Shown here: positions 1 to 27,981 of the stretch, piece by piece | Layout of the letters: the number at the start of each line of letters is the position of its first letter | How positions within the stretch are numbered: position 1 is the stretch's first letter | Assembly: GCA_964653805.1 (NCBI GenBank) | Contig: CAZZFS010000001.1 | Span: 74,911 to 138,910, forward strand | Length of the DNA stretch: 64,000 bases | DNA from: an uncultured Clostridiaceae bacterium | GTDB taxonomy: Bacteria > Bacillota > Clostridia > TANB77 > CAG-465 | Direction: 5' to 3' | Notes under the pieces: model-generated | What the model was told of the DNA's origin: nothing | The model's database searches: none | Seen by the model: the letters and a program-made list of their open reading frames with translations, nothing else | Program-made: the position numbers and the translations under genes

Positions 1-351
1 AATTATGATCTTCATACACCAGCTGCTGTTTCAAATGCTTATGATAATTATGGTATAACAACAACTACTACTGGAGGAGCTAGATTACCATACTATGGGG
101 TTAAAGATCTTATAACTGAAGCAAATAATGTTTTATTAACTGCTGCAGATGATGTAACTTATTTTTCACAAGTAACACCAGCAATAGCTACAGTTTCAGG
201 ATTTGCTACAAATCAATCATTATTAACATTAACAGCAGGTATTACAAAAGTAAGAGTATATATGTATGTTGAAGGTCAAGATGTTGACTGTGAAAACAAT
301 GCTTCTGGATCAGATATAACATTTGATTTACAAGTAACTACAAATACATAA
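1..351 (+). CDS. 3' end (116 codons) of a CDS cut by the window edge. Thr/Ala/Gly/Val-rich, nearly uncharged tail ending ...ITKVRVYMYVEGQDVDCENNASGSDITFDLQVTTNT. Probably a secreted or structural protein; family not recognised
   Basis: Frame 1 is open from base 1 to TAA at 349-351. Composition resembles surface or fibre proteins. A strong hairpin terminator follows. Absent from the ORF track because its start lies outside the window. Confidence 0.55.
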   Translation, partial: NYDLHTPAAVSNAYDNYGITTTTTGGARLPYYGVKDLITEANNVLLTAADDVTYFSQVTPAIATVSGFATNQSLLTLTAGITKVRVYMYVEGQDVDCENNASGSDITFDLQVTTNT

Positions 352-382
352 TATTGAAAAAATATATTAATTAGAAATTTAA

Positions 383-412
383 AAGAAGCAATTTGAATTG
401 CTTCTTTTTTCT
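383..412 (+). terminator. Rho-independent terminator
   Basis: 11-bp stem aagaagcaatt / aattgcttctt with loop tga, followed by a T-run. Confidence 0.7.
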
Positions 413-557
413 TTTGTGTTTTAAATATATTTATATAATATAATTACTAGTAAAAATTTCAAAAAAATGCAACAAATTTCTCTTAAATAATGTTATTAAT
501 TATTGTTATATGATATAATATTGCAATAGTTATAATGAGTATTAAGAGGTAAATATT

Positions 558-677
558 ATGGATAAAAAATTAAGTAATCAAGAATTAATAGATTTATATA
601 AAAAAAATCAAGAATTTATAAATTACATAGAAAAAGAAATGAAAGAAATTGAAAAATTGAGGGATAGTAATGAATAA
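558..677 (+). CDS. 39-aa acidic/basic helical miniprotein (MDKKLSNQELIDLYKKNQEFINYIEKEMKEIEKLRDSNE)
   Basis: AAGAGG Shine-Dalgarno at 544-549, 8 nt before the ATG. Its stop overlaps the ATG of the next gene (ATGAATAA at 670-677), suggesting translational coupling. Below the ORF-track size cut-off. Confidence 0.35.
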   Translation: MDKKLSNQELIDLYKKNQEFINYIEKEMKEIEKLRDSNE

Positions 678-2220
678 ATTTGAAGAAGAAATTGAAAAAA
701 TAAAAGTAGAAAAAGAAATATTAGAAGTTTTACCTAGAAATAATATAAGGAATATAAAAAAAACATATGAAAAATATGAAGAAATACATAACGAATTTTT
801 AGAAAAAAGAGAAAATATTATAAAAGAAATTGAAAAAAGATTTTATAAAGAAAAAAATGTAGAAAAAAATAATGATATACAAAAATTAGAGTTAAAAATA
901 AATAAAATCGAAGAAAAATTAATTTTTTTAAATAATATTACAACTTCATATGAAAAAATAGGTATAAGTGAAAATATTCATAATTTAAAATATTTTTATA
1001 TGAAAGATTTAAATCTTGTAAATCAAAATATTTTAGAATGTATAGAAAAATTTAAAAAAATAGGTATTGTATTAACAGCAGAAGATTTTACATATAATAA
1101 ATATGTAAATGACTATTTAAAAGTTTTTTTTGAAAATATAAAAGATTTAACATCTTCGAATATAAAAGAAGTTTTTGAAAAAGTATATTGGAAATGTCCT
1201 GAAATAATAACATATATTGAATTAAATATAAGATATTTGTTTTTTAAAAATGAAAAGAAAATAGAAAAAATTTATGAAGAACAAAATCAAAAAAATATAA
1301 AAGATAAAAACAATATTTTAGAAGAATATAATGTTTTAAAATATGAGTTAAGAGAAAAAAGAATTTTAGACCAAACTGTTATTATAGAAGCTTTTTTAAG
1401 TGGGGAATTAAATTCTAAAGATTATACAAAAGAAAAACTATTAATGGATCTTTCTAAGTTTATATCAAAAGATATATTAGATGAATTAAATGAAACACAA
1501 ATAGAAGATTTAGTTTTAGAAATGATTAAATTTCAGGAAACATTAAAAGAATATAAAATATACAGTAAATATAAATTTATTATTGATAATGTGCATGATG
1601 TTTATAAAAAGAAAGAACATAATAAAAAAATATATGAAAAATTAAAAAAAGAAATAAGTAAAAAAGAAATAAAAGTTTTAAAATTAAATAAAAAAGGTTT
1701 ATTTAAAAAATCAGAAGAAAAAAAATTAACCAAACAAACAGCAATAGTTTTAGAAATTAAAGATTTATATGATAAATTAGACAAGTATAAAGTTTATTAT
1801 AAAATTGAAACGAAAATTAATGATAACTCAACATTATTTGATCTTTTATATTTAGGTAGTTCATTTTATGATTATATGTTTGATTGTATTAGTGAATTTA
1901 ATAAAGAAATTTTAGAAGATGAAATAAAATTAATGATAGAAGAGTTGATTTTTGCTATTAAAGATATTAATTATAATATTATAAATAATATTACAATCAA
2001 CGAAAATAAAAACATTATTCATATTATAAAAGATAAATATCAATTATCTAATATAACAATAAGTAAAGAAGAATTAGATGAAGCTAATACAGATAACTTA
2101 GATAATTTAATAATTTCTTTAAAAAAATATGAATGTTATTATAATGTAATAAAAAATAAAATAGATTCAAAAGAAATAAATGAGTTATATGAGTTTAATA
2201 AAATAATAAATAATAAATAA
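670..2220 (+). CDS. 516-aa Lys/Glu/Ile/Asn-rich protein, predicted coiled coil, no TM segment or signal peptide; function unknown
   Basis: Long ORF on the same strand as the downstream giant gene, 30-42 nt upstream of it. Heptad-like charged repeats. No motif I recognise. Confidence 0.7.
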   Translation: MNKFEEEIEKIKVEKEILEVLPRNNIRNIKKTYEKYEEIHNEFLEKRENIIKEIEKRFYKEKNVEKNNDIQKLELKINKIEEKLIFLNNITTSYEKIGISENIHNLKYFYMKDLNLVNQNILECIEKFKKIGIVLTAEDFTYNKYVNDYLKVFFENIKDLTSSNIKEVFEKVYWKCPEIITYIELNIRYLFFKNEKKIEKIYEEQNQKNIKDKNNILEEYNVLKYELREKRILDQTVIIEAFLSGELNSKDYTKEKLLMDLSKFISKDILDELNETQIEDLVLEMIKFQETLKEYKIYSKYKFIIDNVHDVYKKKEHNKKIYEKLKKEISKKEIKVLKLNKKGLFKKSEEKKLTKQTAIVLEIKDLYDKLDKYKVYYKIETKINDNSTLFDLLYLGSSFYDYMFDCISEFNKEILEDEIKLMIEELIFAIKDINYNIINNITINENKNIIHIIKDKYQLSNITISKEELDEANTDNLDNLIISLKKYECYYNVIKNKIDSKEINELYEFNKIINNK

Positions 2221-2250
2221 TAAATTTTTAAAACAAAGTTTGGGTATATA

Positions 2251-5200
2251 ATGAGGAAAGATATGAAAAAAAATAATTTAAGAAAGTATTTGATTTTAAC
2301 CATATTAGTATTAATAATTATTGTTGAAATTATAACATGGGGGAATTCTAAAGCAGAAAATGTTATACAAATACAAGCGAGTGTTTCTGATAATAATAAT
2401 TTACTACAAACACAAACGGCTACGTTATCTGCAACTGATGGTGGAGCTAGTGGTTATTATATTAATTTGCCTAGAGTTTTAAATACAAAGATTATATCTA
2501 AATATTATATAGAAGAAAGAACAATTGATCCACAAACACAAGAAGAAATAATTACATATGTTGAAAAAAATTATGGTGATGTAATATATTTAACTAGTGA
2601 TCAAACAACAAATCTTTCAATGAGTTTTAAAGTAGCATATGACACAAAAGTAGTTAATACAACAACTTTATATAAAAAAGTGTTAGAACATTCAATAGAT
2701 GAATCAAATAGTATAAAACTTGAAGGATATATGCCAGAAGCAGCAATTGCAAATGTAAGTGCTATTAACAATATTGTTGCAGATGAAATTATTAATGCAT
2801 ATCCAGGTATTTTAAAATCTGCTTATGATTTAAAAATAACAAATAACGGAACACCTTATTTGTGTGCAGACTATAGTGAAACAATAAAAATAATATATAA
2901 CAATATTGCTAATGATGTTACTTATCAATTGATATCTTTAGATGATAGTAGTAATGCGCAAAGTACAAGAGAAGATTTAACTTCTGCTTGTACAATAAAT
3001 GTACCTGAATTATCAGTTAATGTATCAATATTAAAATCATATTTTTTAATTGATAAAACGCCAGGTCAAAGTACAGCAGTTGAAACACTTCCTGCTACGG
3101 ATGTAATTAATATAACAAATGTTTTACAAGCTGGTGGGAAATGGGATGGAACAACATCTCCAGCTTTTGCTTATGGAACAGGAACTAGTATAGATCCATA
3201 TTTAATTGCGACAGGTTCTGATTTAGCATATTTAGCTTCTCAAGTAAACGCTGGGCAAACTTATGAGGGTGTATATTTTAATTTGGTAAATGATATAGAT
3301 TTGGACAATAGAGCGTGGTCTCCAATAGGTAATTACGATAATTCTTTTAGAGGTGTTTTTGATGGTGCAGGACATTCTATAAAAAACTGTACAATTACAA
3401 CTAGTAGTACTTTTCCAACGGATACGATGTATACATATGGTATATTTGGTTCTATTGGTGGAGGAACAGGTACTAGAACAGAAGTTAAAAATACACAATT
3501 TGATAATATAGATATTTCAATTACATCAACAGGTACTATGACAGGAACAGTTCAAAGAGGATATAGTATTGGATTTGTTACAGGAACTATGTTTAAAAAT
3601 TCTACTGTTTCTAATGTTGTTGTTAAAGGTTCAACAGTAAATGCAAATAATAATATTAGTATTAGAAGTAATTATCAAAGAGTGTTAGTAGGTGGGATTG
3701 CTGGTGAAACCTTAGGTGATGCTACAATGTCTACAGCTCCTAGTGATCCGGGTTCTTCGCTTTGGTATTCTATAGATAATTGTTATGTTAAAGCTGATTT
3801 TACCTTAGCAAGAATAACAACAAGTAGTAGAACATATGCAGCTCAATATAGTATTGGTGGAATAATAGGTAGAATAAGAACTCAAGGAGTATGGCCTACA
3901 AACTGTTTATATGAAGGGAATATAAATGCATATGGTTTTATAGGACCTTTATTTGGTACATTACTAACTTCTTCTTCTTATGGTACAGCTCAGTATGATG
4001 GTATGTGGAATGGTAATAATTATGGTAATTTAACATCAAACAGTTATTATACTAATTATAATGCAAATAGTAGAAATTTCACATCAAGTGTTACAAGTGG
4101 AACAGCAGGATATAATACTAATTATAGATATAGTTCAAATTCTACTAATATTGGTTACGTACAAGGTGTAAATAAAGGAACGTATATAAGTGATACAGGC
4201 TCTTTACTTGCTGGTTTTAATACTAGAGCTGGAGGAACAGTTTTATGGAATTATGAAAATGGAGAGTTTTCTTTGGTTCCTAGAATAACAGCTGCAATAG
4301 ATGAGCCAACAAATTTTAATTATAAAATATATATAGCAGATAGTTATGATACAGGAACATATACATATAAATGGTATATAGATGGTGTTTTTAATTCAAG
4401 CATAACAGGAAGTACAGCTGCGATATATAATACTTCACTTACAACTGATAAAAATGTTGTGGTTTTAATATCAGATGGTACATATAATACTATTGTAAAA
4501 TTCACAGTACCAAAAATAACTATAAATATAGCTTTTAATATTGATAGGACAAATAATATTGCAACAGCAAGTTTTACTGGAACAGGTGCTAGATATGCTG
4601 TAGATTCAGATTATACCTTTGAATGGTATAAAGAAGATATTACTGGTTTAGATAGTGGTAAAATAGATGGGGCTACAACAAAAGTCTTAACAGGAATATC
4701 ACCTGATTATGATTATAGATTAGTAGCTACAAACAATAAAAATTCACAGTTATCCACTGAAGGTAGATTTTCATATTATGATAGAACAGTAATATATGTT
4801 GATTATACTTGGGGATATGATACAAATGATGGCTTAAGTGAAGATACACCAGTTAAAACTATGAAAAAAGCATATGAAAAATTAGATATAAATGGTAACG
4901 TACATTCAAATATAATAGTAGTTATGAGAGATTATATGACAAATGATTATTTATATACAACATCTTCTACATATGCAACAGTACAAGCTAATTTTTCAAA
5001 AAAAGCAACTGTTACAGGATTATACAAATCAACAAATTATAATACAGCTTGGTATTTAGGAATAGCAGATGTAAATAATACAGGTAATTTGTTATTTGAT
5101 GATACTAGGTTTATGTATTTAAAAATGTATGGTAGTACGAGTTCAACAGGTCAAGGAGCTTCATATATTTATACACAAGGTCATAATTTAACAATGGGTG

Positions 5201-8200
5201 AAGGTATTGTTATGCAAAGATATGCTGTATCTAGTACAGGTTATGCACTTGCAAGTGGTAATGCGCCAGATTTTCATTTGGTTTGTGGTTTTTTAAATTA
5301 TAACTGGAGTAGTATACCAGAAGCAAATAATAACGGTACAGTTACAATAAATAGCGGTACATACTCAAGAATTTTAAGTGGTTCTAGAAATAGTGTTCTA
5401 AATTCAACATCTCATAATATAACAGGATCACTTGCTAATCCATATAAGATAAAACTTGTAATAGATATAAAAAATTCAACTACAAATACAGCGTCTTATC
5501 CAAATGATATAAATTCTATATTTGGAGGGCAAACAGATGGTAATATATATAATGATTATGAACTTACTGTAAATAATGGTGAAATAGGAAGAGTTGTTGG
5601 AGGAAGTATAGGATATAACAGAACAATAACAGGATATCCATGTAATTCATATTTTGGAAAAAGCAAACTTAATGTAAATGGTGGAACTATAAATGAGTTA
5701 TATGGTGGTTCTTTAGGAAGAAATAAAAGTGATGTATATTATTATGGTGAAATCGAAATAAACATAAATGGTGGAACTATATATAGTAATATATATGGAG
5801 CGGGAGCTGGTGGTGTTACTGGATATGATGCTACATCAACAGATCCATACAAATCATATGGTCAAAGTATAGCAACTAAATCTACAGTTAATGTAAATGG
5901 CGGAACAATTAATGGTAATATATATGGAGCTGGGTATGGATATTCACCATATTTAGATAGTACAAGTATTGCAACAGATGGAGGAGCTTTATATGGTAAT
6001 TCATTTGTAAATATAAATGGTGGTACAGTAACAGGTAATATATATGGAGCAGGTAGAGGTTATTCTGGATATTCTGGAAAAACAACTCTTGCTAGAATGA
6101 AAGGTAATACAAGCATTAATATTAAAAATACACCTGTAATAAGTGGAAGTATATATGGAGCAGGTGAAGGTGTATCAGGATATGCAGAAACAGCAAAACT
6201 TACAGGTAATTCGAATATTATTAATGAATCAAATTTTTCAAACAATATCTATGCAGGTGGTAATATATCAAGTAGTGTTGGGGATACAAATATAGATATA
6301 AATAATGGTAATTTAACAGGAGAAATATATGGTGGAGGAAATTTAGGATCAGTTACTGGTAATACAAATATTAATTTAAATGCTGGAACTATTAATGCCG
6401 TATATGGTGGAGGAAAATCTGCTGGAATAACAAATTCAAATATAGCTTTAAAAGGTTCAACTGTTACAACTATTTATGGTGGTTCAAATGTTACAGGAAA
6501 TGTAACAAGTAGTAATTTATTATTAACAAGTGGAACAGTAAGTACTGTATATGGTGGAAATAATTTAGGTGGAACAACAACAACAACAAACATTAATTTA
6601 AATGGAGCAACCATTACAAGTGATTTATATGGCGGAGGAAACCAAGCAAATTGTTCAACATCTAATTTAAATTTAGAAAATTCACCAAATTTAGTGCCTA
6701 ATGTATATGGCGGAGGAAATAGAGCTGGTGTTACTAATACGATATTAAATTGTAAAGGCGTAAATATAACAAAATTATTTGGTGGTTCAAATACTACAGG
6801 TAATGTATTAAATAGTTTATTAAATATATATAATGGAACAATAGGTGACATATATGGTGGAAATAATTTAGGTGGAACAACAACTAATACAAATATAAAT
6901 GTTATTGGTGGAAATATAACAAATATATATGGTGGTGGTGAACAAGTAGCTAGTACAACATCAAATATAAAAGTTGCATCTGGAAATATAACTAACATAT
7001 ATGGTGGTGGAAATCAAGCAGGAATAAATACGTCTAATTTAGATATAATTGGTGGACAAGTAGGAAGTTTATTTGGTGGTGCTAATGTCAGTGGTGATGT
7101 TAATCAAACAAATGTAAAAACAAAAGATACTGTTAAAATAAATACAACATCGGCTAGTACAACAGATGACGGTTTAATTATAAATACCACATGTTCTGCT
7201 GCTAGTACAACATGGCAAAGCTCAACATATCCAACTATTGCTACTATTAATGTAACTATTTCAAATCTAACTGCAAGTAATATTGATACGTGGAATGGTA
7301 AAATAATTGCTAAAGATTCAGTAATGTATAATAATTATAGTTCAACAAATATTACTGAAAATAATGGAGAATTTTCATTTAATCAAGTAAATAAATATTA
7401 TGGAATAAATTCTATACCAAGTAATGGGAATTATTCATTTAGCTTTGAAGTTCTTTCAATGCAATCAGTTGAAAGTTTTAATGTAGATAAATTTATAAAT
7501 GATTTTATGGTTATAAACAACAAGCAATTAAATATACAAAATGTATATGGTGGAAATAATTTAGGTGGAACAACAGGGAATTCATTAGTTGATTTAAAAT
7601 ATGGAACTGTTAATACTGTATATGGCGGAGGAAATCAAGCTATAACAACAACAACTAATTTGAATGTATCAAATAATATAACTGGTTGTGTATATGGTGG
7701 AGGTAATCAAGCAAATGTTAATGTTACAAATTTAAATTTAACTAATGCGAGTGTTTTAGATAATGTATATGGTGGAGGAAATGAAGGTTCTGTAACTACA
7801 AACACAAATGTACATGTGAAAAATTCTACTTTAAGTAATAGTTTATATGCTGGTGGAAATGGAACATATGCAACTGTTCATGGAAATACTAATTTAATAA
7901 TGGATGGTACATCAAATTCAGTAACAAATAATGTTTTTGGTGGAGGAAATAAAGCTGAAACAGGAGAAGATGCTTTAAGAAATTCAATATGTACTGTAAA
8001 TATAGCTGGAGCGACTATAGGTAAAAATGTATATGGAGGAGCTAACACATCAGTTGTTTATGGTACAACACAAACAAATATTGGTTATGACGCTGTAAAT
8101 AATAATACTTTAGAAAAAGGTAATGTTAAAATAACTGGAACTGTATTTGGTGGTGGTGAAGCAAACGAAGCGGGTTCTGAAATTTATGACTTTTCATTTA

Positions 8201-10884
8201 TTAGTGTTACAAATGGAATAAATATAAATATAAATGGAAATTCACATACAGAATTTTATATAAGAGGTAGTATTTTTGGTTCGGGTAATGCATCAAGTAC
8301 AAGTGGAACAAGTCATATTAATATAAAAAATTATGGCAATATAGATTTACCTCAAAAAAATGTATCTATTCAAAGAGCAACAGAAGTAGTTTTAGATAAC
8401 TCAGCTATTGTTTTAAGTGGAGCTAAAGATAGAACAAATGAATATTCTAATGTTAATTTTTCAATAAGTAGAGTAAAAGCACTAAAATTAAAAAACAATT
8501 CAACGTTATATTTAAATTGTGGTGTAAATTTATTAGAAAATTTACATAGTTTGGTTGATATAGGTGAAACAGAAACATTAGGTGCTGCAACAATAAATCC
8601 AGATACAGGAGATACTGTTAAAAATGTAGATAATAGAGTGTATATGTATGAAGGAAAAGTATTAAATATAGCAACTAATGAACAAGTTACAGCATACGGT
8701 AAAGTTTATGGAATGACATTTTTAGGAATGTATACTAATACTACAAATCCAAGTACAAGTACAGGTTTATATAATCATACTTTTGAAAATGGCGAAGAAA
8801 TCACTAACATGGGAACATTTTCATCAAACTCTTATGTACTTGCAGAACATAAAGCAAATCATGATACAAGTATAGATGGTTTTTATACAAATATAAATAA
8901 TGAAGGATATGCAAAAACAAAATATATTGATGTTGCACCACAAGATGATTTATATTATATTTGGTCTGTTGGTGAAGCTTTAGATGTTACAAATTTTGAT
9001 TTAACACTTACAGCTTCAAAATATGCAACACTTGGTACATATGAATTATCATTAACTGGTTTTTCAAATCCTAATACAAAATTTTTAATATCAGGTTTTT
9101 CATCTGGTCTTAATGATAATATATCATTAGTTGATAAATCACAAATTGATGCAATAGATGAAACTAATCAATTAGCTGATAAAGAATTTGGACTTAGTAT
9201 GAAAAGTGGAAAAAATGGATGGTCAACTAATAGTGAAACTAATTTTTATGCAGATGGTGGAGCAACTTATAGTGGTAGTGGACAATATTTAAGTGATAAC
9301 TCTACACATACACCAACATTATCGTTTTGCTTTTATCATGCACAGAACTTAACATTAGAACAGGCTTTAGGTAATGTTAAAATAAGGTTGCAGGTGTTGA
9401 CACCAATAGATGATTTGACATATGGAATCTCATATATAGATATAAATATAAATTTACTTACTGCTTTATTCCAAGATGATTATTATGAAGCAGCTATTAC
9501 ACCAGGTGAAGAATTTGGATTGTTTAATACAACTGAAACGTCTATAACAAACAAGAGTAAATTTTCAACATATTACTCGTTATTTATACCTGATTTTAGT
9601 ACAAGTAAATATTTTTCAAATTTTGCTAATGATGAAAGAGTAATTGTATCTAGAACCTCCGATAATCAGAATTTGGTATATAAAGAAAATACTAAGATAA
9701 CAATGATAGATCTAGTTACAAATATGACATATTATTATAATGTGACAGCTCAAGATGAGCAAAGTGGAAAAAATTCATACAAAATATCAGAGTTTAAAAA
9801 AATGGGTAGTACAAATGAATATTATGATAAAACATATGCAAATAGTATGTATTATGATACAGCACAAAATATTGAATATGAAAGTTTTGTATTTCAAGTA
9901 GATTTTAGTCAATCTAATCAAAATACCGAAATATCAAATTCAACATTATTTATTGAATTACAAGATCAAGGTAATCAAACTTTAATTGGTGTTTTAGGTA
10001 TACAAAGAGATTCATGTAAATATAGTGTATATCCAAATAAAGATTCTGTAATAGATGTAAATGCAACTCTTAGTACAAATACAGTATATTTAGGACAAAT
10101 ATTTAATTTAGATGTTGCAACAGATTATAAACAGCAAGTTATAAATTCAAAAATAGTTTATGATACAAAATATTTCCAACAACAAATGGGTATTAAAATA
10201 ACTTGTTTTGATAGTAATTTAAATCAATTAAATGCAGATAGTTTATTAGGTGTTAAGTTTATTTTAGATGGTAAAACCTATTATCCAAGAATTGATGGTA
10301 CAGTTAGAATAAATATTGCTGAAAGAGTATCAAATGTAATATCAAAAATAAAATTTGATACAACAAAAAACACTACACTTGCAACAGGTAAATATACAAT
10401 AAAAGTAGAAAGTTTTGGTTCGCCAGATGGTGTATATTATGGACTTACATCTTCTGATTTTGTTACAAAAGATATTAACATTATAAATGGAGCATATGGA
10501 TTAAAAGTTTGGTTTGATGATAAAACAAAAATTGTTGATAAAGAAACAGGTAATACTTTGTATGGAAATAATACTTTATTAACAAATATAAATTATAGTT
10601 CAGCAATTGCAAATCCTACTATAACAGTTTCTTTGGAAAGAAGAGATTATAGCGCAATATATTCTTTAAATTATAATAAACTTGATTTAAAAGAATATAT
10701 GACAAATACATTAACAGAATTTAAAACAAATGAATATATTGTTTCAACTTCTCCACAAGCAAGTTCTACATTTTTCTTAAATGTAAAACCTCAAATTAAA
10801 ACAGGTACATATAAAGTGTTATACAAAGTTTATGATGGTACAACATATATAGGAGAAGCTTCGGAATATTTTATAGTGAAATAA
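2251..10884 (+). CDS. Giant (2,877 aa) secreted beta-helix / adhesin-like protein. It has an N-terminal signal or anchor, a 'DPYLI...DIDL...W.PIG..F.G.FDG.GH.I' beta-helix cap module, Ig-like modules, about 28 [YF]GGGN-type coils, and a C-terminal region of about 850 aa with no repeats
   Basis: Uninterrupted 8.6-kb ORF. The likely true start is ATG 2263 (MKKNN), with AGGAAAG 5 nt upstream. Hydrophobic segment YLILTILVLIIIVEIITWG, then SKA/EN. The cap motif lies at about nt 3163-3391. Repeats span nt 5518-8300. No C-terminal LPXTG. Confidence 0.9.
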   Translation: MRKDMKKNNLRKYLILTILVLIIIVEIITWGNSKAENVIQIQASVSDNNNLLQTQTATLSATDGGASGYYINLPRVLNTKIISKYYIEERTIDPQTQEEIITYVEKNYGDVIYLTSDQTTNLSMSFKVAYDTKVVNTTTLYKKVLEHSIDESNSIKLEGYMPEAAIANVSAINNIVADEIINAYPGILKSAYDLKITNNGTPYLCADYSETIKIIYNNIANDVTYQLISLDDSSNAQSTREDLTSACTINVPELSVNVSILKSYFLIDKTPGQSTAVETLPATDVINITNVLQAGGKWDGTTSPAFAYGTGTSIDPYLIATGSDLAYLASQVNAGQTYEGVYFNLVNDIDLDNRAWSPIGNYDNSFRGVFDGAGHSIKNCTITTSSTFPTDTMYTYGIFGSIGGGTGTRTEVKNTQFDNIDISITSTGTMTGTVQRGYSIGFVTGTMFKNSTVSNVVVKGSTVNANNNISIRSNYQRVLVGGIAGETLGDATMSTAPSDPGSSLWYSIDNCYVKADFTLARITTSSRTYAAQYSIGGIIGRIRTQGVWPTNCLYEGNINAYGFIGPLFGTLLTSSSYGTAQYDGMWNGNNYGNLTSNSYYTNYNANSRNFTSSVTSGTAGYNTNYRYSSNSTNIGYVQGVNKGTYISDTGSLLAGFNTRAGGTVLWNYENGEFSLVPRITAAIDEPTNFNYKIYIADSYDTGTYTYKWYIDGVFNSSITGSTAAIYNTSLTTDKNVVVLISDGTYNTIVKFTVPKITINIAFNIDRTNNIATASFTGTGARYAVDSDYTFEWYKEDITGLDSGKIDGATTKVLTGISPDYDYRLVATNNKNSQLSTEGRFSYYDRTVIYVDYTWGYDTNDGLSEDTPVKTMKKAYEKLDINGNVHSNIIVVMRDYMTNDYLYTTSSTYATVQANFSKKATVTGLYKSTNYNTAWYLGIADVNNTGNLLFDDTRFMYLKMYGSTSSTGQGASYIYTQGHNLTMGEGIVMQRYAVSSTGYALASGNAPDFHLVCGFLNYNWSSIPEANNNGTVTINSGTYSRILSGSRNSVLNSTSHNITGSLANPYKIKLVIDIKNSTTNTASYPNDINSIFGGQTDGNIYNDYELTVNNGEIGRVVGGSIGYNRTITGYPCNSYFGKSKLNVNGGTINELYGGSLGRNKSDVYYYGEIEININGGTIYSNIYGAGAGGVTGYDATSTDPYKSYGQSIATKSTVNVNGGTINGNIYGAGYGYSPYLDSTSIATDGGALYGNSFVNINGGTVTGNIYGAGRGYSGYSGKTTLARMKGNTSINIKNTPVISGSIYGAGEGVSGYAETAKLTGNSNIINESNFSNNIYAGGNISSSVGDTNIDINNGNLTGEIYGGGNLGSVTGNTNINLNAGTINAVYGGGKSAGITNSNIALKGSTVTTIYGGSNVTGNVTSSNLLLTSGTVSTVYGGNNLGGTTTTTNINLNGATITSDLYGGGNQANCSTSNLNLENSPNLVPNVYGGGNRAGVTNTILNCKGVNITKLFGGSNTTGNVLNSLLNIYNGTIGDIYGGNNLGGTTTNTNINVIGGNITNIYGGGEQVASTTSNIKVASGNITNIYGGGNQAGINTSNLDIIGGQVGSLFGGANVSGDVNQTNVKTKDTVKINTTSASTTDDGLIINTTCSAASTTWQSSTYPTIATINVTISNLTASNIDTWNGKIIAKDSVMYNNYSSTNITENNGEFSFNQVNKYYGINSIPSNGNYSFSFEVLSMQSVESFNVDKFINDFMVINNKQLNIQNVYGGNNLGGTTGNSLVDLKYGTVNTVYGGGNQAITTTTNLNVSNNITGCVYGGGNQANVNVTNLNLTNASVLDNVYGGGNEGSVTTNTNVHVKNSTLSNSLYAGGNGTYATVHGNTNLIMDGTSNSVTNNVFGGGNKAETGEDALRNSICTVNIAGATIGKNVYGGANTSVVYGTTQTNIGYDAVNNNTLEKGNVKITGTVFGGGEANEAGSEIYDFSFISVTNGINININGNSHTEFYIRGSIFGSGNASSTSGTSHINIKNYGNIDLPQKNVSIQRATEVVLDNSAIVLSGAKDRTNEYSNVNFSISRVKALKLKNNSTLYLNCGVNLLENLHSLVDIGETETLGAATINPDTGDTVKNVDNRVYMYEGKVLNIATNEQVTAYGKVYGMTFLGMYTNTTNPSTSTGLYNHTFENGEEITNMGTFSSNSYVLAEHKANHDTSIDGFYTNINNEGYAKTKYIDVAPQDDLYYIWSVGEALDVTNFDLTLTASKYATLGTYELSLTGFSNPNTKFLISGFSSGLNDNISLVDKSQIDAIDETNQLADKEFGLSMKSGKNGWSTNSETNFYADGGATYSGSGQYLSDNSTHTPTLSFCFYHAQNLTLEQALGNVKIRLQVLTPIDDLTYGISYIDININLLTALFQDDYYEAAITPGEEFGLFNTTETSITNKSKFSTYYSLFIPDFSTSKYFSNFANDERVIVSRTSDNQNLVYKENTKITMIDLVTNMTYYYNVTAQDEQSGKNSYKISEFKKMGSTNEYYDKTYANSMYYDTAQNIEYESFVFQVDFSQSNQNTEISNSTLFIELQDQGNQTLIGVLGIQRDSCKYSVYPNKDSVIDVNATLSTNTVYLGQIFNLDVATDYKQQVINSKIVYDTKYFQQQMGIKITCFDSNLNQLNADSLLGVKFILDGKTYYPRIDGTVRINIAERVSNVISKIKFDTTKNTTLATGKYTIKVESFGSPDGVYYGLTSSDFVTKDINIINGAYGLKVWFDDKTKIVDKETGNTLYGNNTLLTNINYSSAIANPTITVSLERRDYSAIYSLNYNKLDLKEYMTNTLTEFKTNEYIVSTSPQASSTFFLNVKPQIKTGTYKVLYKVYDGTTYIGEASEYFIVK
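5518..8300 (+). repeat. Intragenic coil repeats of about 25 aa, consensus x[IVL][YF]GG[GSNA]N..G....[ST]N[IL]N. Block A is 5518-7110, an insert of about 140 aa follows at 7111-7530, and block B is 7531-8300
   Basis: I counted about 28 [YF]G[GA][GSN] motifs by eye. The 30-nt string tatggtggaaataatttaggtggaacaaca recurs in frame at 6550, 6853 and 7546. Confidence 0.85.
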
Positions 10885-10896
10885 AAAAGGTGTAAA

Positions 10897-11478
10897 ATGG
10901 GATATAATAAAAATTTAATTGAAAAAAGTAATAATTTTAAAAAAAGTATTTTGAAATTTTTAAAAATAATTATATTTAGTATTGTTATAATTATAGTATA
11001 TAATATATTTTTAGTTCTCTTGTCAGCTTCGGCTGACAAAGAGACTTCAAATATATTTGGCTATAGTGCATACATAATAACAACGGATAGTATGAAGCCA
11101 ACATTGAATGTTAGTGATGTTGTTATTATAAAAAAAGTGAATGCTAAAACTTTAAAAAAAGATGATATTATAACGTTTAAAAAAGAATCAAAAATAATAA
11201 CTCACCGAATAATAATTAAAAATGAAGATGAATATACTACAAAAGGTGATAATAATAATGTTGAAGATTCTTTTATTGTTAAAGAATCTGATATATTAGG
11301 TATGAAAATTTTTAAAATTCCTTTTTTAGGAAAAATAGTTAAAATAATAAATAATGTTTTTTATATTTTTATAATAGCGATAACTTTAATTACAATATAT
11401 TTGTATAGTAGAAGAAAAAATCGTAAAAAAATAATAAGAAGAAAGAAAAAAAGGTTAGAAGATGAAAAAAATAAATGA
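10897..11478 (+). CDS. sipW: ER/archaeal-type signal peptidase I (S26B), SipW-like
   Basis: N-terminal TM, then FGYSAYIITTDSMKPTL (catalytic Ser box), ITHRI (His box), TKGDNN (Asp box), and a C-terminal TM followed by a basic tail RRKNRKKIIRRKKKR. Starts 12 nt after the giant gene. Confidence 0.85.
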   Translation: MGYNKNLIEKSNNFKKSILKFLKIIIFSIVIIIVYNIFLVLLSASADKETSNIFGYSAYIITTDSMKPTLNVSDVVIIKKVNAKTLKKDDIITFKKESKIITHRIIIKNEDEYTTKGDNNNVEDSFIVKESDILGMKIFKIPFLGKIVKIINNVFYIFIIAITLITIYLYSRRKNRKKIIRRKKKRLEDEKNK

Positions 11479-12004
11479 AAATAAAAAAATAAATATAAAA
11501 ATGATTTTACTTGTAATTGTTTTTTTTATACTAATATATAATGTGTTGTATCAAATATTTGGAATACAGATACCATTTGTTGTTCAAACTGATTCAATGA
11601 AAACTGATATAAATAAGTATGATGTTTTGTTTTTGAAAAAATCTAATTATGAAAAAAATGATATAGTTGTTTTTAAAGATAATGATCAAACTAAAATAGC
11701 AAAAGTAATGAATAAAATAGAAGATAATTATATTTTAAAATCTAATCAAAATTTATATTATATTGAGAATATAAAAGAAAGTGAAATAATTGGGAAAGTT
11801 ACAAAAAAAATAAGTTTTATAGGAATTATTTTTTTAATACTTCGATCTAAAATTATAACATTTATATTTTTAAGTATATTTTTAATTAATTTTATAATCA
11901 ATGAAAGAAAAAGAAAAAGTAGCCTTTTTAGAAAAAAGAAAAAACATATATTAAAAAATAAAGAATATTTATCAAAAGAAAAAATTAAAAATAATGATAA
12001 ATAA
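11462..12004 (+). CDS. SipW paralogue with degenerate catalytic boxes (candidate pseudo-peptidase)
   Basis: Same architecture: N-terminal TM, FG..VVQTDSMK, DIVVFK, C-terminal TM and basic tail. In an ungapped alignment from the shared FK, the His box THRI becomes IAKV and TKGDNN becomes LKSNQN. Overlaps sipW by 17 nt. Confidence 0.6.
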   Translation: MKKINENKKINIKMILLVIVFFILIYNVLYQIFGIQIPFVVQTDSMKTDINKYDVLFLKKSNYEKNDIVVFKDNDQTKIAKVMNKIEDNYILKSNQNLYYIENIKESEIIGKVTKKISFIGIIFLILRSKIITFIFLSIFLINFIINERKRKSSLFRKKKKHILKNKEYLSKEKIKNNDK

Positions 12005-12073
12005 TGATAAATAATGATAAATAATAATAAAAATAAAATAGTAGATAAAGAAAAAGTTATTAAAGTCATAAAA

Positions 12074-12110
12074 AATAAGTATTGATAAAAGTATCAATAC
12101 TTATTTTTTT
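12074..12110. terminator. Bidirectional rho-independent terminator between convergent genes
   Basis: Perfect 14-bp stem aataagtattgata / tatcaatacttatt with loop aaag, an A-run upstream and a T-run downstream. Confidence 0.75.
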
Positions 12111-12120
12111 ATTTTATAAT

Positions 12121-13038
12121 TTAAAGATTGTTTTTTGTTGTATAAGGTGAAATTTTAAATTCTGTTTTAAAGAAATTAAAATCATCTAATTCATTATATT
12201 CAAGACAAGATAAATAAACATCTAATTCGTTTAAATTTTTGCAAGCTGTTATAACAGCAGGATGTAAATTATAATTAGAAAATAATTCAATACTAAGTTC
12301 TAAAGCTTGTATTATAGAACCTTTTTCTTTTTCTCTTACTAATTTATAAGCTTCTTTAAATCTTGATATCGAAGAAGCTTTATATTTTGTATGAGGTAAA
12401 GTATAGTATTTATCTATAATTTCTTGTTCATTTTTAAAATCAAGATTAGGATTTCTTAAGATAGAAATAATTTCAGTATTTTGATATGGAAGTAAAACCT
12501 TATTGTCAATTTCAGAAATTATTAAAGTTTTTTCTGGGTAATCTATATTTAAAGATTGACTTGCTAACTCTAATTCTTTAATATCACCTAAATTATTTTC
12601 TTCATCATTATTAACACAATTTTTATTAATGAAAAATTGTATACTATTATTATTTATAGATACATCTGAAAATGTAGCTGTATATAGTTTATTATAATCT
12701 TCTAATTTGTTATCTAAAATTTTTAAATCAACATCTTGTTCTAAACAATGTTCATTACAAATTTCATCTAAGTTATTAATTAAAATATTCAAAGACGAAA
12801 TGTTATAATTTGAAATTTTTAATATTTTTGATATGTTATCTAAACAATCCACTTTGTTATTTTCGTCTTCTTGTGATGAATCACTATTAATAGAATTAAC
12901 AAAAAGTTTTAAATGTAAAAGTAATTTTTTCTTAAAGTTTTCTTGTGTTTCTATTGATTCATTTATATGTTTTTTTTCGATATTTACAAAATCTAAAAAA
13001 GTTAGATTATCAATAATTTCTTTCGTTAATTTTATCAT
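12121..13038 (-). CDS. Hypothetical 305-aa acidic protein
   Basis: Long ORF with GGAGGA Shine-Dalgarno upstream (ggaggatataaATG on the minus strand). No recognisable motifs. Confidence 0.6.
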   Translation of the reverse strand: MIKLTKEIIDNLTFLDFVNIEKKHINESIETQENFKKKLLLHLKLFVNSINSDSSQEDENNKVDCLDNISKILKISNYNISSLNILINNLDEICNEHCLEQDVDLKILDNKLEDYNKLYTATFSDVSINNNSIQFFINKNCVNNDEENNLGDIKELELASQSLNIDYPEKTLIISEIDNKVLLPYQNTEIISILRNPNLDFKNEQEIIDKYYTLPHTKYKASSISRFKEAYKLVREKEKGSIIQALELSIELFSNYNLHPAVITACKNLNELDVYLSCLEYNELDDFNFFKTEFKISPYTTKNNL

Positions 13039-13370
13039 TTATATCCTCCATAATGTACATATTAAATTATACAATATTTAACTAAAAATATGCAATAGTT
13101 TTTTACTATAATTTGGTTTTTAGTTAAATTTAGCTTTTATTTTTATAAAATAAAAATGCTATATTGAAATTTTGTACAAAATTATAAAATTCATCTGATA
13201 TAAATCAGTTTTTTTATAATTTTATCAATAACTTTTGATAATGTCAATGGTAGAATGGATTTTTACTGAAAAAATGTTATTCTTTTAGTATATTTGGCTT
13301 AAAAAATAAAATAAAATAAAAATAAATAACATAAAATAGTGTTTAAAATTAACAAATATTAGAAAAACAC

Positions 13371-13398
13371 TTGTATATATTTTTTTATATGTTATAAT
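13371..13398 (+). promoter_or_regulatory. Sigma-A-type promoter (TTGTAT-16 nt-TATAAT)
   Basis: Hexamers at 13371-13376 and 13393-13398, about 115 nt upstream of the zinc-ribbon gene. Confidence 0.4.
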
Positions 13399-13432
13399 GT
13401 TAGTATAAGTTCATTAGAAAGTTTAAATATTA

Positions 13433-13502
13433 TCCTTTAAGAAAAAGTATTTTTAAAGTTAATTTTAAAGTCTAGCTAATAACTATTATATTTCTTAAAG
13501 GA
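13433..13502 (+). promoter_or_regulatory. Long-range 12-bp stem in the 5' UTR that occludes the Shine-Dalgarno sequence
   Basis: tcctttaagaaa (13433-13444) is perfectly complementary to tttcttaaagga (13491-13502). The latter overlaps AGGAGG at 13499-13504. Confidence 0.3.
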
Positions 13503-13511
13503 GGAAAAATA

Positions 13512-13670
13512 ATGCAAGATAAAACAATATTATGTAAAGATTGTGGAACAGAATTTACTTTTACAGTAGCTGAACAAGAATTTTATGCAGAAAAAGGATT
13601 TACAAATGATCCAGTAAGATGTAAAGATTGTAGAATGGCTAAAAAAGCTAGAAACAACAGAAATTACTAA
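13512..13670 (+). CDS. 52-aa zinc-ribbon protein (CxxC...CxxC, zf-trcl-like)
   Basis: MQDKTILCKDCGTEFTFTVAEQEFYAEKGFTNDPVRCKDCRMAKKARNNRNY. AAAGGAGG Shine-Dalgarno 7 nt upstream. A hairpin terminator follows at about 13681-13718. Below the ORF-track cut-off. Confidence 0.75.
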   Translation: MQDKTILCKDCGTEFTFTVAEQEFYAEKGFTNDPVRCKDCRMAKKARNNRNY

Positions 13671-13765
13671 GATAAAAAATAAAGAAGTAAATGGTTAATC
13701 CATTTGCTTCTTTATTTTTTTGTTATTCTTGTATTTTTTAAAACTTTAGATTTTTAAATTATTTG

Positions 13766-14011
13766 TTATTTAAAATAATTTAAAAGTTGCATTAAATTTT
13801 TTTTGTAATGATTTACAACTCCAAGCATAGTTGCTTTGTCAGCTTGTTTTGCAAGTTCAAAATTTTCTAGAAATGCTACTCCATTTTTATCAAGCCAGTT
13901 GTTCCGTATAAACATAATTTGAGTGTCAAAGTTATTATCACCCATGTTTATTTTTTTTATAAGAATGTTCAAAGAGTTGACTACACCGTCAAAATCGTTA
14001 ATTTTTACCAT
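13766..14011 (-). CDS. Hypothetical 81-aa protein
   Basis: ORF with GGAGGA Shine-Dalgarno upstream on the minus strand (aggaggattttataATG). No recognised family. Confidence 0.5.
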   Translation of the reverse strand: MVKINDFDGVVNSLNILIKKINMGDNNFDTQIMFIRNNWLDKNGVAFLENFELAKQADKATMLGVVNHYKKNLMQLLNYFK

Positions 14012-14217
14012 TATAAAATCCTCCTAAAAATTTAAGATTATAGCAACTCATATAATAAATGAGTTAATATATATTATTTTGTTATAAGTATATCACACAA
14101 ACACTTTTATGTCAACTTACTTTCTTTTTTTGAATATTGAAATTATTGTGTGTTTTTTGCATTTAAAAAAGTAATGATATTGCTTAAAAAATTAAAGTTT
14201 CTTATTAGAAAAATGTA

Positions 14218-14246
14218 TTGAAAAAGATATATATTTTTGGTATAAT
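14218..14246 (+). promoter_or_regulatory. Sigma-A-type promoter (TTGAAA-17 nt-TATAAT) for mutS
   Basis: Hexamers at 14218-14223 and 14241-14246. Confidence 0.5.
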
Positions 14247-14321
14247 AATACTTACAAAATAAAAGTAAAAAATTAATAAAAAATAATATATTAATATGAA
14301 AAATTAATGGAGGATATAAAT

Positions 14322-16934: not shown

Positions 16935-17043
16935 TAAAAAATAAAAGAATAAAAAATAAAAGAATAAAAAATAATAAATTATAAAAGGAATAAAAAAATA
17001 AAAATAAAATAAACTAAAAAACTACTATGATAGGGGGTATAAA

Positions 17044-19030
17044 ATGGGAAGTATAGTGCTACTTGATGAACATACAATAAATAAAATAGCAGCTGGTGAA
17101 GTTGTAGATAGACCAGCATCTATTGTTAAAGAATTAGTTGAAAATTCAATAGATGCAAAAGCAACTTCAGTAACTATAGAAATAAAAAATGGACGGAATT
17201 AAATATATTAAAATAATAGATAATGGCGTTGGTTTTGAAGCTGATGATGTTGAAATGGCATTTGAAAGACATGCCACAAGTAAAATTAGAAAAGAAGAAG
17301 ATTTACTTACAGTAAAATCTATGGGATTTAGAGGTGAAGCTTTAGCTTCTGTTGCAGCTATTTCTAGAGTAAGTTTAATAACTAAAAATAAAAATGAAAA
17401 TACTGGAGTTAAAGCTATTGTAGAAGCAGGTAAAATACTTTCTATTGAATCTATTGCATCAAATGTAGGAACAAAATTAGAAATAAGAGATGTATTTTTT
17501 AATGTTCCAGCAAGATTTAAATTTTTAAAAAAAGATTATACTGAAGCTGGATATATAGAAGATGTAGTAAGAAGAATAGCTCTTGCTAATCCACATATTA
17601 GTTTTAAATTTATAAATAATAATAAATCAGTAATTCAAACAACAGGTAGTGGAGAATTAAAAACAACAATTTATGAATTATTTGGTAAAGAAATTTATGA
17701 TAATATAATACCTATAGAATATGAACATGAAAATATAAAAATAAAAGGTATGGCAGGACTTTCAAGTATCGCTCGTTCAACTAGAATGAATCAATATACT
17801 TTTTTAAATTCAAGATATATAAAAGATAAAATAATTAATTCAGCTATAGATAAAGCATATACTGAAAAATTAGGTATAAACAAATTTGCTTTTATTGTTT
17901 TAAATTTAGATGTAAATCCTGCAAATATTGATGTAAATGTACATCCAGCTAAATTAGAAGTTAAATTTGATAATGAAAATCAGATTTTTAATTGTGTATA
18001 TTTTGGGGTAAAAACAGCTTTAGAAAATAATAATAAAAAAACTAATCCATTTACTATTGCTGCAGAAAAAGAAATTAGTAATACTTTAAATATTCAAGAA
18101 GTTATAGAAAGTAAAGTTGTAGATAAAATATTAAGAGAAAAAGAAATAGAAAAAAATATTGATTTTAATAAAAAATTTGATTTTGAAAAAACAAAAATTA
18201 ATTTGGAAAATATAAATTCTTCAAATGTAATAAAAAATACAACTGTTAATAATGTGGAAAATTTAGAATTGAAAAATGAAAAAAGCAATGAAAATATAGA
18301 AAAAAATATAACATTAACTAATGATATTTTAGAAGAAAACAAAGAAGAAATTTTTGAAGAAGTCATAGAAGAAAATTATAATGGAAATAGTAATGAAAAA
18401 GAAATAGAAAACATTTTTTATGAAGAACAAGAAATAAAACACGAAAATGTAGAAAAAATAGTATATAAATATATTGGTCAAGTTTTTGATACATATATTA
18501 TAATTCAAATAGATGAAAAAATGTATATAATAGATCAACATGCAGCACATGAAAGACTTTTGTATGAACAAATAAAAGAAAGTTATAATTCAAAAGATAA
18601 ACAAACTCAAATGATGTTAATCCCGCTTCTTATTGAATTAACATCAAAAGAAAAAAACATCGTTATGCAAAACATAGAAATGTTTGAAAAAAGTGGTTTT
18701 ATTTTAGAAGAATTTGGTGATACAACAATAAAAATATCGGGTGTTCCAAATATAGGTTATGATATTGAATATAAAGGTATGTTTATAGATATAGTAGATG
18801 AATTACTTGGAGCTTCAAAAACACAACAACAAGAAAAAGAGTTTAGATTTATAGCAACACTTGCTTGTAAAGCAGCTGTAAAAGGTAATATGAGACTTAG
18901 TGAAGTTGAACAAAAATCATTAATAGCAGATATGATGAAACTTGAAAATCCTTTTACTTGTCCACATGGAAGACCTACTGCTTATGAAATATCTAAATAT
19001 GAAATTGAAAAAAGATTTTTAAGAAAGTAG
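17044..19030 (+). pseudogene. mutL: DNA mismatch repair protein MutL, split by a +1 frameshift near 17194
   Basis: Frame 1 from ATG 17044 gives [52 protein letters not shown] and stops at 17200-17202. Frame 2 continues (D)[14 protein letters not shown]... to 19030. Deleting C17194 restores the canonical ...[15 protein letters not shown]. The C-terminal FTCPHGRP motif is present. Confidence 0.8.
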
Positions 19031-19038
19031 ATGTTAAT

Positions 19039-19971: not shown

Positions 19972-19991
19972 AGATAAATAGAGGTAAATAT

Positions 19992-26767: not shown

Positions 26768-26920
26768 TGTTGATGTATTTTAATATATATGGTATAGTAT
26801 AAGATATATAAAAATACGGAAGATAAAAATAAAATTTGAAAAAAAGATTTAAATATAAATGAAATTAAAAAATAAGAGATATAATTATCAAAAAATGTTT
26901 TAAGTGTGGGAGAAATTATT

Positions 26921-27892: not shown

Positions 27893-27981
27893 TTTGAATT
27901 GAAAATAAAAGAGTAAATAAAAAACAAACAAATATTATAAAAGAAAAAGATGATTTTTAAATTGTCAAAAAGGGGGATAGT

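Follow-up and report, generated by a model that had tools for sequence, protein, structure and literature searches.

A conserved operon in uncultured gut Clostridia links a giant secreted protein to a SipW-like signal peptidase and a conserved inactive paralog

We describe five genes at positions 558 to 12004 of a 64,000-nucleotide (nt) stretch of DNA (here called the window) from an uncultured Clostridiaceae bacterium (assembly GCA_964653805.1, contig CAZZFS010000001.1, positions 74,911 to 138,910). They encode, in this order, proteins of 39, 516, 2,877, 193, and 180 amino acids (aa), the third of which is referred to as the giant. We lean, with some reservation, toward the view that the five genes form a module devoted to exporting and maturing a giant adhesin or fibril that is attached to the cell non-covalently. 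The giant would be made with an N-terminal Sec-type signal peptide and exported via Sec, and its cognate 193-aa endoplasmic reticulum (ER)-type signal peptidase would cut it after the sequence A-F-x-[N/D]-S-[R/K]-A. The catalytically dead 180-aa paralog would be a membrane partner of the active enzyme, contributing substrate specificity, holding the substrate, or providing a docking site. The 516-aa protein and its coupled 39-aa partner would act in the cytoplasm as a chaperone, targeting factor, or regulator for the long precursor, possibly through the basic cytoplasmic tails of both peptidase-like proteins. At the cell surface, the module would cooperate with an adjacent fiber cluster that encodes small subunits with SipW-style signals and its own SipW paralogs; the conserved stalk of the giant would be the likely contact with the envelope or the fiber, and its variable N-terminal part the exposed end. 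We infer the cleavage of the giant by the 193-aa protein, the peptidase heterodimer, the role of the 516-aa/39-aa pair, and the cooperation with the fiber from the evidence below.

The association of these genes extends well beyond the window. A scan with the 516-aa family, with one genome per species, gave 121 loci. We retained and read the best 80; together with four loci from metagenome contigs and the window itself, they make up the 85 loci considered here. Nearly all come from metagenome-assembled genomes of uncultured Clostridia in the guts of humans, sheep, goats, rabbits, and chickens, and one lies on a closed 1.55-Mb chromosome. A SipW gene follows the 516-aa gene in 78 of the 85 loci, the other seven being contigs that end too early, and the giant is present in 74. 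The loci span 30 to 100% identity and retain the same partners in several gene orders (39-516-giant-SipW-pseudoSipW, subunit-516-SipW-[convergent gene]-giant, and giant-39-516-SipW). On this comparison of sequences, peptidase, giant, and 516-aa protein stay together far more than chance would predict. A first-pass annotation, made from the letters of the window, had listed a lack of conservation of the neighborhood in related genomes among the outcomes that would refute its proposal, and the synteny over the 85 loci shows that the neighborhood is strongly conserved.

The 193-aa protein (gene 4, positions 10897 to 11478, + strand) is, judged by profile match and motifs, a catalytically competent ER/archaeal-type (S26B) signal peptidase. 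It matches TIGR02228, the model for ER/archaeal-type signal peptidases, with 88.6 bits (cutoff, 51.85) over model positions 4 to 151 of 158, and harbors the motifs TDSMKPT, ITHRI, and TKGDNN, transmembrane (TM) segments at both the N and C termini, and a basic cytoplasmic tail. The catalytic Ser, His, and Asp are kept in all 51 positional orthologs. The same motifs had led the first-pass annotation to call it a SipW-type peptidase, an assignment that the TIGR02228 match upholds. In Bacillus subtilis SipW, the Ser47/His87/Asp106 triad is essential, and the C-terminal tail, which is cytoplasmic, has a further role apart from proteolysis (PMC8767453).

The 180-aa protein (gene 5, positions 11462 to 12004, + strand) is 32% identical to the 193-aa protein (BLASTP, E = 6e-13) and shares its topology, and basic C-terminal tails are present on both. 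Against TIGR02228 it reaches only 29.5 bits, under the cutoff of 51.85, and it stays below every family cutoff. The copy in the window has the motif TDSMKT and thus keeps the Ser, but His is replaced by Ala and Asp by Asn. SipW homologs were collected from the 85 related loci and sorted into classes by gene position. Class C, the first gene after the giant, keeps Ser, His, and Asp in 51/51 members. In class D, which comes second after the giant, 16 of 33 members have Leu in place of Ser and 11 keep the Ser (the window included), His is absent from 31 of 33, and Asp is mostly Asn. The remaining two classes belong to the fiber cluster: class A is fully catalytic, and class B keeps Ser and His while Asp is replaced by Ile, Val, or another residue in 40/40. 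Identity is 0.38 to 0.52 within classes and 0.21 to 0.31 between them, and class D is intact as an open reading frame (ORF) in 33 loci, with approximately 38% mutual identity, despite the loss of catalytic residues. By these sequence measures the classes are old, separately maintained orthologous groups and not decaying copies, and the 180-aa protein is a conserved pseudo-peptidase, homologous to the family but not an active member of it. The earlier suggestion that the second SipW copy is non-catalytic is thereby borne out, the residue losses being conserved over 33 orthologs.

The start of the pseudo-peptidase gene overlaps the SipW gene, by 17 nt in the window and also in relatives, which suggests that the two genes are translationally coupled. 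The class C/D pair is assigned to the giant because the fiber cluster has SipW paralogs of its own (classes A and B). A Ser/Lys dyad in the 180-aa protein, proposed by aligning IAKVM with ITHRI by eye, was considered and rejected for the family: BLASTP and MAFFT both align Ala with the His and Lys with the Arg, and most orthologs lack the Ser. In the window's own copy, such a dyad is unlikely. As separate observations on these proteins, positions 11989 to 12031 hold 4.3 tandem copies of a 10-bp unit, AAATAATGAT, that run across the stop codon of the 180-aa gene, where a change in copy number would alter the C-terminal tail or the stop of the protein. In class B (L064, positions 6047 to 6664, and 39 other loci), the Asp position of the GDNN motif is occupied by Ile, Val, Leu, Thr, or Lys; because this Asp is reported to be essential in B. 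subtilis SipW, class B proteins may be impaired or may work differently.

The presumed substrate begins with a signal peptide (residues 1 to 35, positions 2251 to 2355, + strand) in which a basic n-region is followed by a hydrophobic core and the sequence ...IITWGNSKA/EN, with the cut predicted after A35 (GNSKA/EN) from a cleavage-site logo. Among 30 nonredundant giants, this logo has Ala at P-7 (21/30), Phe, Trp, or Tyr at P-6 (26/30), Ser at P-3 (26/30), Arg or Lys at P-2 (26/30), and Ala at P-1 (27/30), which gives the conserved motif A-F-x-[N/D]-S-[R/K]-A before the cut. The site is 87 to 90% conserved, compared with approximately 33% identity in the N-terminal region around it, and this is what a dedicated recognition site would look like. 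The first-pass annotation had described the giant as having an N-terminal signal and no C-terminal LPXTG; the signal was seen, and a regular-expression search for LPXTG was negative. Within the hydrophobic core, Glu26 (positions 2326 to 2328) occupies P-10, a position with Glu or Gln in 19 of the 30 homologs. Sec signal peptides do not usually have such a residue there, and it may mediate contact with a partner in the membrane.

The mature giant falls into two parts. Its N-terminal two-thirds (positions 2356 to 8730, + strand), as defined by alignment and motif counts, is approximately 30 to 40% identical to homologs, with many insertions and deletions, and includes glycine-rich, YGGGN-type repeats of approximately 25 residues, the main repeat region being residues 1100 to 1850; 13 [YF][GA]GG motifs are present in the giant, mostly 24 to 26 residues apart. 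The C-terminal third (positions 8731 to 10884, + strand), delimited by alignment, AlphaFold2, and Foldseek, carries tandem immunoglobulin (Ig)-like or beta-sandwich domains, and the C-terminal approximately 1,000 residues are approximately 60% identical among homologs. In an AlphaFold2 model of residues 1850 to 2877 (predicted local distance difference test [pLDDT] score, 82; predicted template modeling [pTM] score, 0.70), residues 1850 to 2160 (approximately 310 residues) form short, regularly spaced, solenoid-like strands, followed by tandem beta-sandwich domains. The best Foldseek match of this model is the Ig-like stalk of Enterococcus PrgB (8beg, E = 7e-11), and other matches are complement MG domains, integrin leg domains, and RbmA. 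The repeats and the modeled residues 1850 to 2160 suggest that the variable part would be a beta-solenoid shaft, and the models point to an Ig-like stalk in the conserved C-terminal third. Such an architecture, with a variable distal shaft and a conserved proximal stalk, would be that of a Gram-positive fibrillar adhesin. The earlier description of the giant as a beta-helix protein is supported indirectly, by the glycine-rich repeats and the solenoid-like strands, and no beta-helix model in Pfam matches.

Indeed, the giant has no match at all in Pfam, NCBIfam, or PHROGs, and neither single-sequence nor profile searches of Protein Data Bank (PDB) sequences with the giant and its C-terminal part returned anything significant. 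No toxin or enzyme domain was detected in it with Pfam, NCBIfam, or PDB sequence searches. It ends in ...GEASEYFIVK, with no TM or hydrophobic segment at the C terminus. Many relatives have the giant divided among two to four ORFs (L049 positions 11599 to 20149, L063, L071, L047, L018, and others; P0085-P0140), and a C-terminal piece of identical size, 1,691 aa, recurs in dozens of independent contigs and would lack a signal peptide. The split giants may reflect a true two-gene arrangement, recoding, or assembly errors; as for phase variation, no homopolymer tract was found at the junctions in seven relatives.

The first two genes of the operon encode a pair of proteins that recur together. 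The 39-aa ORF shares its last 8 nt with the 516-aa gene, and in approximately 72 of the 85 loci a homologous ORF of 32 to 52 aa, marked by the motif ELIxLYxKIxxFxxFLEKE, immediately precedes the 516-aa gene, often overlapping it by 4 to 14 nt. On this conservation the 39-aa ORF is a real gene, and its product, as far as the sequence tells, a helical micro-protein, which matches nothing in Pfam, NCBIfam, PHROGs, or PDB sequences. The 516-aa family comprises 80 homologs found by a word-indexed search and 771 representatives at 50% clustering in an exhaustive profile search, nearly all of them 480 to 560 aa long. The 516-aa protein is predicted to be cytoplasmic because it has neither a signal peptide nor a TM segment. 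The first-pass annotation had called it coiled-coil-like without a TM segment, and only the latter part stands: the AlphaFold2 model (pLDDT, 86; pTM, 0.80) is a compact, all-alpha, globular protein of 25 helices. None of 18 family members checked matched Pfam, no NCBIfam or PHROGs match was found, and single-sequence and profile searches of PDB sequences gave nothing significant; a fold search with the model found no analog (best E = 1.2 in PDB and 0.17 in BFVD). At L075, L079, L080, and L084, the 516-aa gene is followed by two or three SipW-like genes.

The layout of the five genes is that of one transcription unit. All lie on the + strand, the 39-aa gene at positions 558 to 677, the 516-aa gene at 670 to 2220, the giant at 2251 to 10884 (with an alternative ATG at 2263), followed by the two peptidase-like genes, and the intergenic distances are, in order, -8, 30 (42 from ATG 2263), 12, and -17 nt. 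The ORF list agrees base for base with the five ORFs and spacings first described, and the hairpins placed on both sides of the operon in the first-pass annotation are likewise found, upstream by terminator scan and folding and downstream by folding. The upstream one (positions 381 to 408, + strand) is an intrinsic terminator-like hairpin with a T-run that ends the gene for a 324-aa subunit, with a folding energy of -12.3 kcal/mol (z = -3.4 relative to shuffles). The downstream one (positions ~12070 to 12110, assigned to neither strand) is an AT-rich hairpin with an A-run before it and a T-run after it; its energy is -18.7 kcal/mol (z = -6.8, with 0 of 200 shuffles as stable), and its AT content is too high for it to be called by the terminator scan. 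Flanked in this way, it could end both convergent units and probably serves as a terminator in both directions, for the operon and for the convergent gene (positions 12121 to 13038). The terminator scan of positions 558 to 12004 found no internal terminator-like site. A candidate extended -10 element, TGaTATAAT (positions 511 to 519, + strand), was read by eye and resembles the sigma-A type, and a putative ribosome-binding site, AAGAGG (positions 544 to 549, + strand), was read from the sequence ahead of the first gene.

The operon region is native and chromosomal. Its guanine-plus-cytosine content is 26%, compared with 22 to 26% in the remaining window, and neighboring genes in the window include those for MutS, MutL, MiaA, and GyrA. 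A mobile-element origin of the operon was considered and rejected in view of this native composition and these housekeeping neighbors. In relatives, TnpV and Mob_Pre genes were seen near the module in L001, and a TnpV gene also in L003.

The first-pass annotation had also treated the five genes as one unit, and with regard to the transcription-unit layout this stands; the genes do not, however, form a self-contained system but are part of a larger conserved locus. Positions 1 to 351 (+ strand) of the window hold the last 116 codons of a gene, truncated at the edge of the window, whose product is a secreted subunit of 324 aa. The complete protein, P0211 (324 aa), is encoded on the same 163,454-nt contig as the 516-aa protein of the window, and its last 116 residues are identical to the product of positions 1 to 351. 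It starts with MIKKSKKKNLKANLLLLFITATLLISSSYAWFTSNQ and has a SipW-style signal peptide (...LLISSSYAWFTSNQ). Its family comprises 1,842 clusters with no annotation and, in type A loci, lies directly upstream of the module; the 324-aa protein is probably the major subunit of the neighboring fiber cluster. TIGR04088, the NCBIfam model of the SipW-dependent-type signal peptide, is nearly reached by the L064 member of this family (18.1 bits; cutoff, 19), whereas P0211 itself gives no match, although SSSYAWFTSNQ is present. No Pfam match, and no TasA/Peptidase_M73, was found for 16 members of the family, and its profile detected no TasA, CalY, or AbpA among PDB sequences.

The upstream side of the locus was read from L086, a relative with 78% identity, and from a table of cluster members. 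In most related loci the subunit gene is the last gene of a conserved fiber cluster of approximately 10 kb, which is seen whole in L064 (positions 299 to 9857), L087 (269 to 10975), and L088 (11781 to 19752). The cluster contains genes for a catalytic SipW, two pilin-like proteins, a 333-aa protein, a 508-aa membrane protein, a protein with DUF2357, the SipW that lacks the Asp, and three additional pilin-like proteins; overall it holds two or three further SipW paralogs, together with six or seven small proteins whose signal peptides are of the types xYAWF, IYAKYL, and ARYES. Some of its subunits are remotely similar to each other, and one small subunit in the cluster of a relative weakly resembles the TapA model TIGR04087 (21 bits, below the cutoff of 80). 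The 508-aa membrane protein has an AAA+ domain with 78% mean column identity, and the profile of its family matches Escherichia coli McrB in PDB over positions 192 to 371 (E = 5e-4). The gene that follows matches DUF2357, the McrC N-terminal domain (E = 2.7e-12), and no nuclease domain was identified. A membrane-tethered McrBC-like pair, as these matches suggest, is unexpected inside a fiber cluster. Two relatives have the reversed order of module, convergent gene, and fiber cluster, and comparison of the loci thus indicates that module and cluster are linked in either order. The giant was also considered as the tip subunit of the fiber, a candidate that is rejected at the sequence level, since hhalign comparisons of eight giant segments with the subunit family gave probabilities of at most 3.3%.

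Downstream of the operon, a gene on the opposite strand (positions 12121 to 13038, - strand) encodes a cytoplasmic protein of 305 aa that is a recurrent neighbor and has no match in Pfam, NCBIfam, or PHROGs. Its C-terminal domain (residues ~170 to 300, approximately 130 aa) is found right after the SipW genes, on the opposite strand, in 18 loci and in several architectures, being fused in relatives to N-terminal parts that differ widely in length (200 to 700 aa). By this recurrence the convergent gene is a sixth conserved partner of the module. In L084, a homolog of the 305-aa protein lies on the + strand.

Several observations weigh against a dedicated export and maturation module for the giant. 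The giant does not match TIGR04088. The 193-aa protein scores 82.7 bits against NF046067, the Bacillus SipW equivalog model, and is, on its sequence, SipW-like rather than a strict SipW ortholog because it falls below the cutoff of 190. No retention mechanism is apparent in the giant, which lacks an LPXTG motif, a TM segment, and a recognized wall-binding domain, and profile comparison revealed no pilin-like domain that would tie it to the fiber. L075 and L084 have SipW copies and no giant in the approximately 10 kb downstream of the 516-aa gene; at L075, L079, L080, and L084 the 516-aa family may serve other cargos. Finally, neither the 516-aa nor the 39-aa protein has a characterized homolog, the 516-aa model has no fold match, and the role given to the pair is a guess.

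A rival reading, which we consider unlikely, is that both SipW-like proteins serve the small subunits of the neighboring fiber cluster and that the giant is merely co-located cargo, processed by the housekeeping P-type signal peptidase. Known SipW substrates (TasA, TapA, and BsaA) are small fiber subunits, a protein of this kind with an SSSYAWF signal is encoded immediately before the operon, and the giant does not match TIGR04088. However, the fiber cluster already holds SipW paralogs, of which class A is fully catalytic, in addition to class B; the C/D pair still follows the giant where the fiber cluster sits on the other side of the module; C and D are distinct orthologous groups; and the cleavage motif of the giant is strongly conserved. 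The want of an anchor raises another alternative, namely, that the giant leaves the cell for the medium and is a matrix, S-layer-like, or toxin-delivery protein instead of a cell-attached adhesin working with the fiber. Signal-peptide cleavage would indeed free a protein without an LPXTG motif, TM segment, or recognized wall-binding domain, and BsaA/TasA-type systems form extracellular matrix. We nevertheless regard release as rather improbable, given that the giant has no detected toxin or enzymatic domain, that its most conserved part is the C-terminal Ig-like stalk, as in cell-attached adhesins, and that the variability of its distal part points to selection on an exposed end.

Least probable, in our judgment, is that the module, expressed in the mother cell during sporulation, builds a spore-surface structure, such as an exosporium fiber or appendage. 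The evidence in its favor comes from one clade, in which the 39-aa gene is immediately preceded, on the same strand, by a YabG-like Peptidase_U57 gene at 12 loci (L001 [positions 8554 to 9751], L002-L004, L010, L011, L014, L015, L017, L018, L020, and L040); in L001-L004, the four with precomputed Pfam annotation, a divergent SpoIIID-like helix-turn-helix gene stands beside it. Together with the TnpV and Mob_Pre genes, these neighbors hint at sporulation-linked expression or mobility in that lineage, and in B. subtilis an active SipW is needed to incorporate TasA into spores (PMC8767453). On the other hand, only 12 of the 85 loci have the YabG-like neighbor, the window is not among them, no sporulation promoter or gene was identified next to the window operon, and the candidate promoter is sigma-A-like.

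With a dedicated module for the giant as the preferred reading, the surrounding locus raises the further possibility, put forward here tentatively and with more doubt than belief, that the operon is one arm of an undescribed surface-filament apparatus of approximately 20 to 30 kb in uncultured gut Clostridia. Such an apparatus would comprise four to five specialized SipW paralogs (two fully catalytic classes, one Asp-less, and one dead), six or seven small subunits bearing SipW-style signals, a McrB-like AAA+ ATPase, highly conserved and tethered to the membrane, that would act with its DUF2357 partner as a motor, and the giant solenoid adhesin, along with a peptidase/pseudo-peptidase pair of its own and a new family of chaperone-like cytoplasmic proteins. 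In it, the pseudo-peptidase would be a signal-peptide receptor or anchor and not an enzyme.

If the preferred reading is true, the principle of a dedicated SipW is extended to a giant adhesin as cargo, and the locus offers a testable substrate-enzyme pair for the specificity of bacterial ER-type signal peptidases. To our knowledge, a dead S26 paralog kept as a partner would be the first bacterial example. Genomic context is gained for three families, namely, the 516-aa protein (771 representatives), the giant, and the 324-aa subunit (1,842 clusters). The hosts are abundant uncultured Clostridia in the guts of humans, ruminants, rabbits, and chickens, in which surface structures are a likely interface with the host or with neighbors; the Tad-type pilus of one such gut clade has been linked to immune stimulation (PMC11680825).

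Two other features of the window were recorded. A 52-aa ORF at positions 13512 to 13670 has two CxxC pairs (MQDKTILCKDCGTEF...VRCKDCRMAKKARNNRNY) and a good ribosome-binding site and is followed by a terminator-like hairpin with a 20-bp stem (positions 13675 to 13719). Positions 23167 to 25035 and 26906 to 28995 encode a TraG/TrwB-type coupling protein near DnaB_2 and IstB/DnaA-like ATPase genes; this region may be part of an integrated conjugative or mobilizable element unrelated to the operon.

We found no gene set of this composition described in Pfam, NCBIfam, PHROGs, PDB, or the literature that we searched, in agreement with the first-pass annotation, whose author model knew of no such system. 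SipW-type peptidases are known as dedicated enzymes for small biofilm-fiber subunits. In the tapA-sipW-tasA operon of B. subtilis, as here, an ER-type peptidase with a C-terminal TM segment and a basic cytoplasmic tail is encoded beside secreted structural proteins thought to be its substrates (PMC8767453). The cargo here, in contrast, is a 2,877-aa multidomain protein and not a subunit of approximately 260 aa, a conserved dead second peptidase and the 39-aa and 516-aa cytoplasmic proteins have no counterpart in B. subtilis, and no protein of the locus matches TasA/Peptidase_M73. The sipW-bsaA-bsaB-bsaC operon of Clostridium perfringens resembles the present locus as a clostridial SipW-linked operon with extracellular polymer proteins that lack LPXTG and with several paralogous subunits in one locus, and its BsaC (~70 kDa, with a VWA domain) is a larger, non-fiber cargo in a SipW operon (bioRxiv 10.1101/2024.11.04.621531). 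The locus described here nonetheless has no VWA protein and no detectable TasA homology, its cargo is four times larger, and it possesses the pseudo-peptidase and the 39-aa/516-aa pair; its neighboring cluster encodes a membrane-bound McrB-like ATPase, whereas bsa depends on type IV pilus genes.

Two further comparisons concern the peptidase pair and its cargo. The mitochondrial Imp1/Imp2 and eukaryotic SEC11 complexes are membrane-bound S26 heteromers in which partners stabilize the enzyme or shape its specificity. Imp1 and Imp2 are both catalytic, and the partners of SEC11 are not peptidase paralogs, whereas the putative partner here is a paralog without catalytic residues. Enterococcus PrgB shares with the giant a signal peptide, a variable distal region, and a conserved tandem Ig-like stalk, but the giant differs in having no LPXTG/sortase anchor, a putative glycine-rich solenoid shaft, and an operon with its own signal peptidase pair. 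Lastly, the Tad-type pilus cluster of the order TANB77 is likewise a set of conserved surface-appendage genes in uncultured gut Clostridia with small, low-GC genomes; it utilizes TadZ/CpaE, TadA/CpaF, TadB/C, and type IV-like pilins (PMC11680825), none of which are found here, where the system is based instead on SipW.

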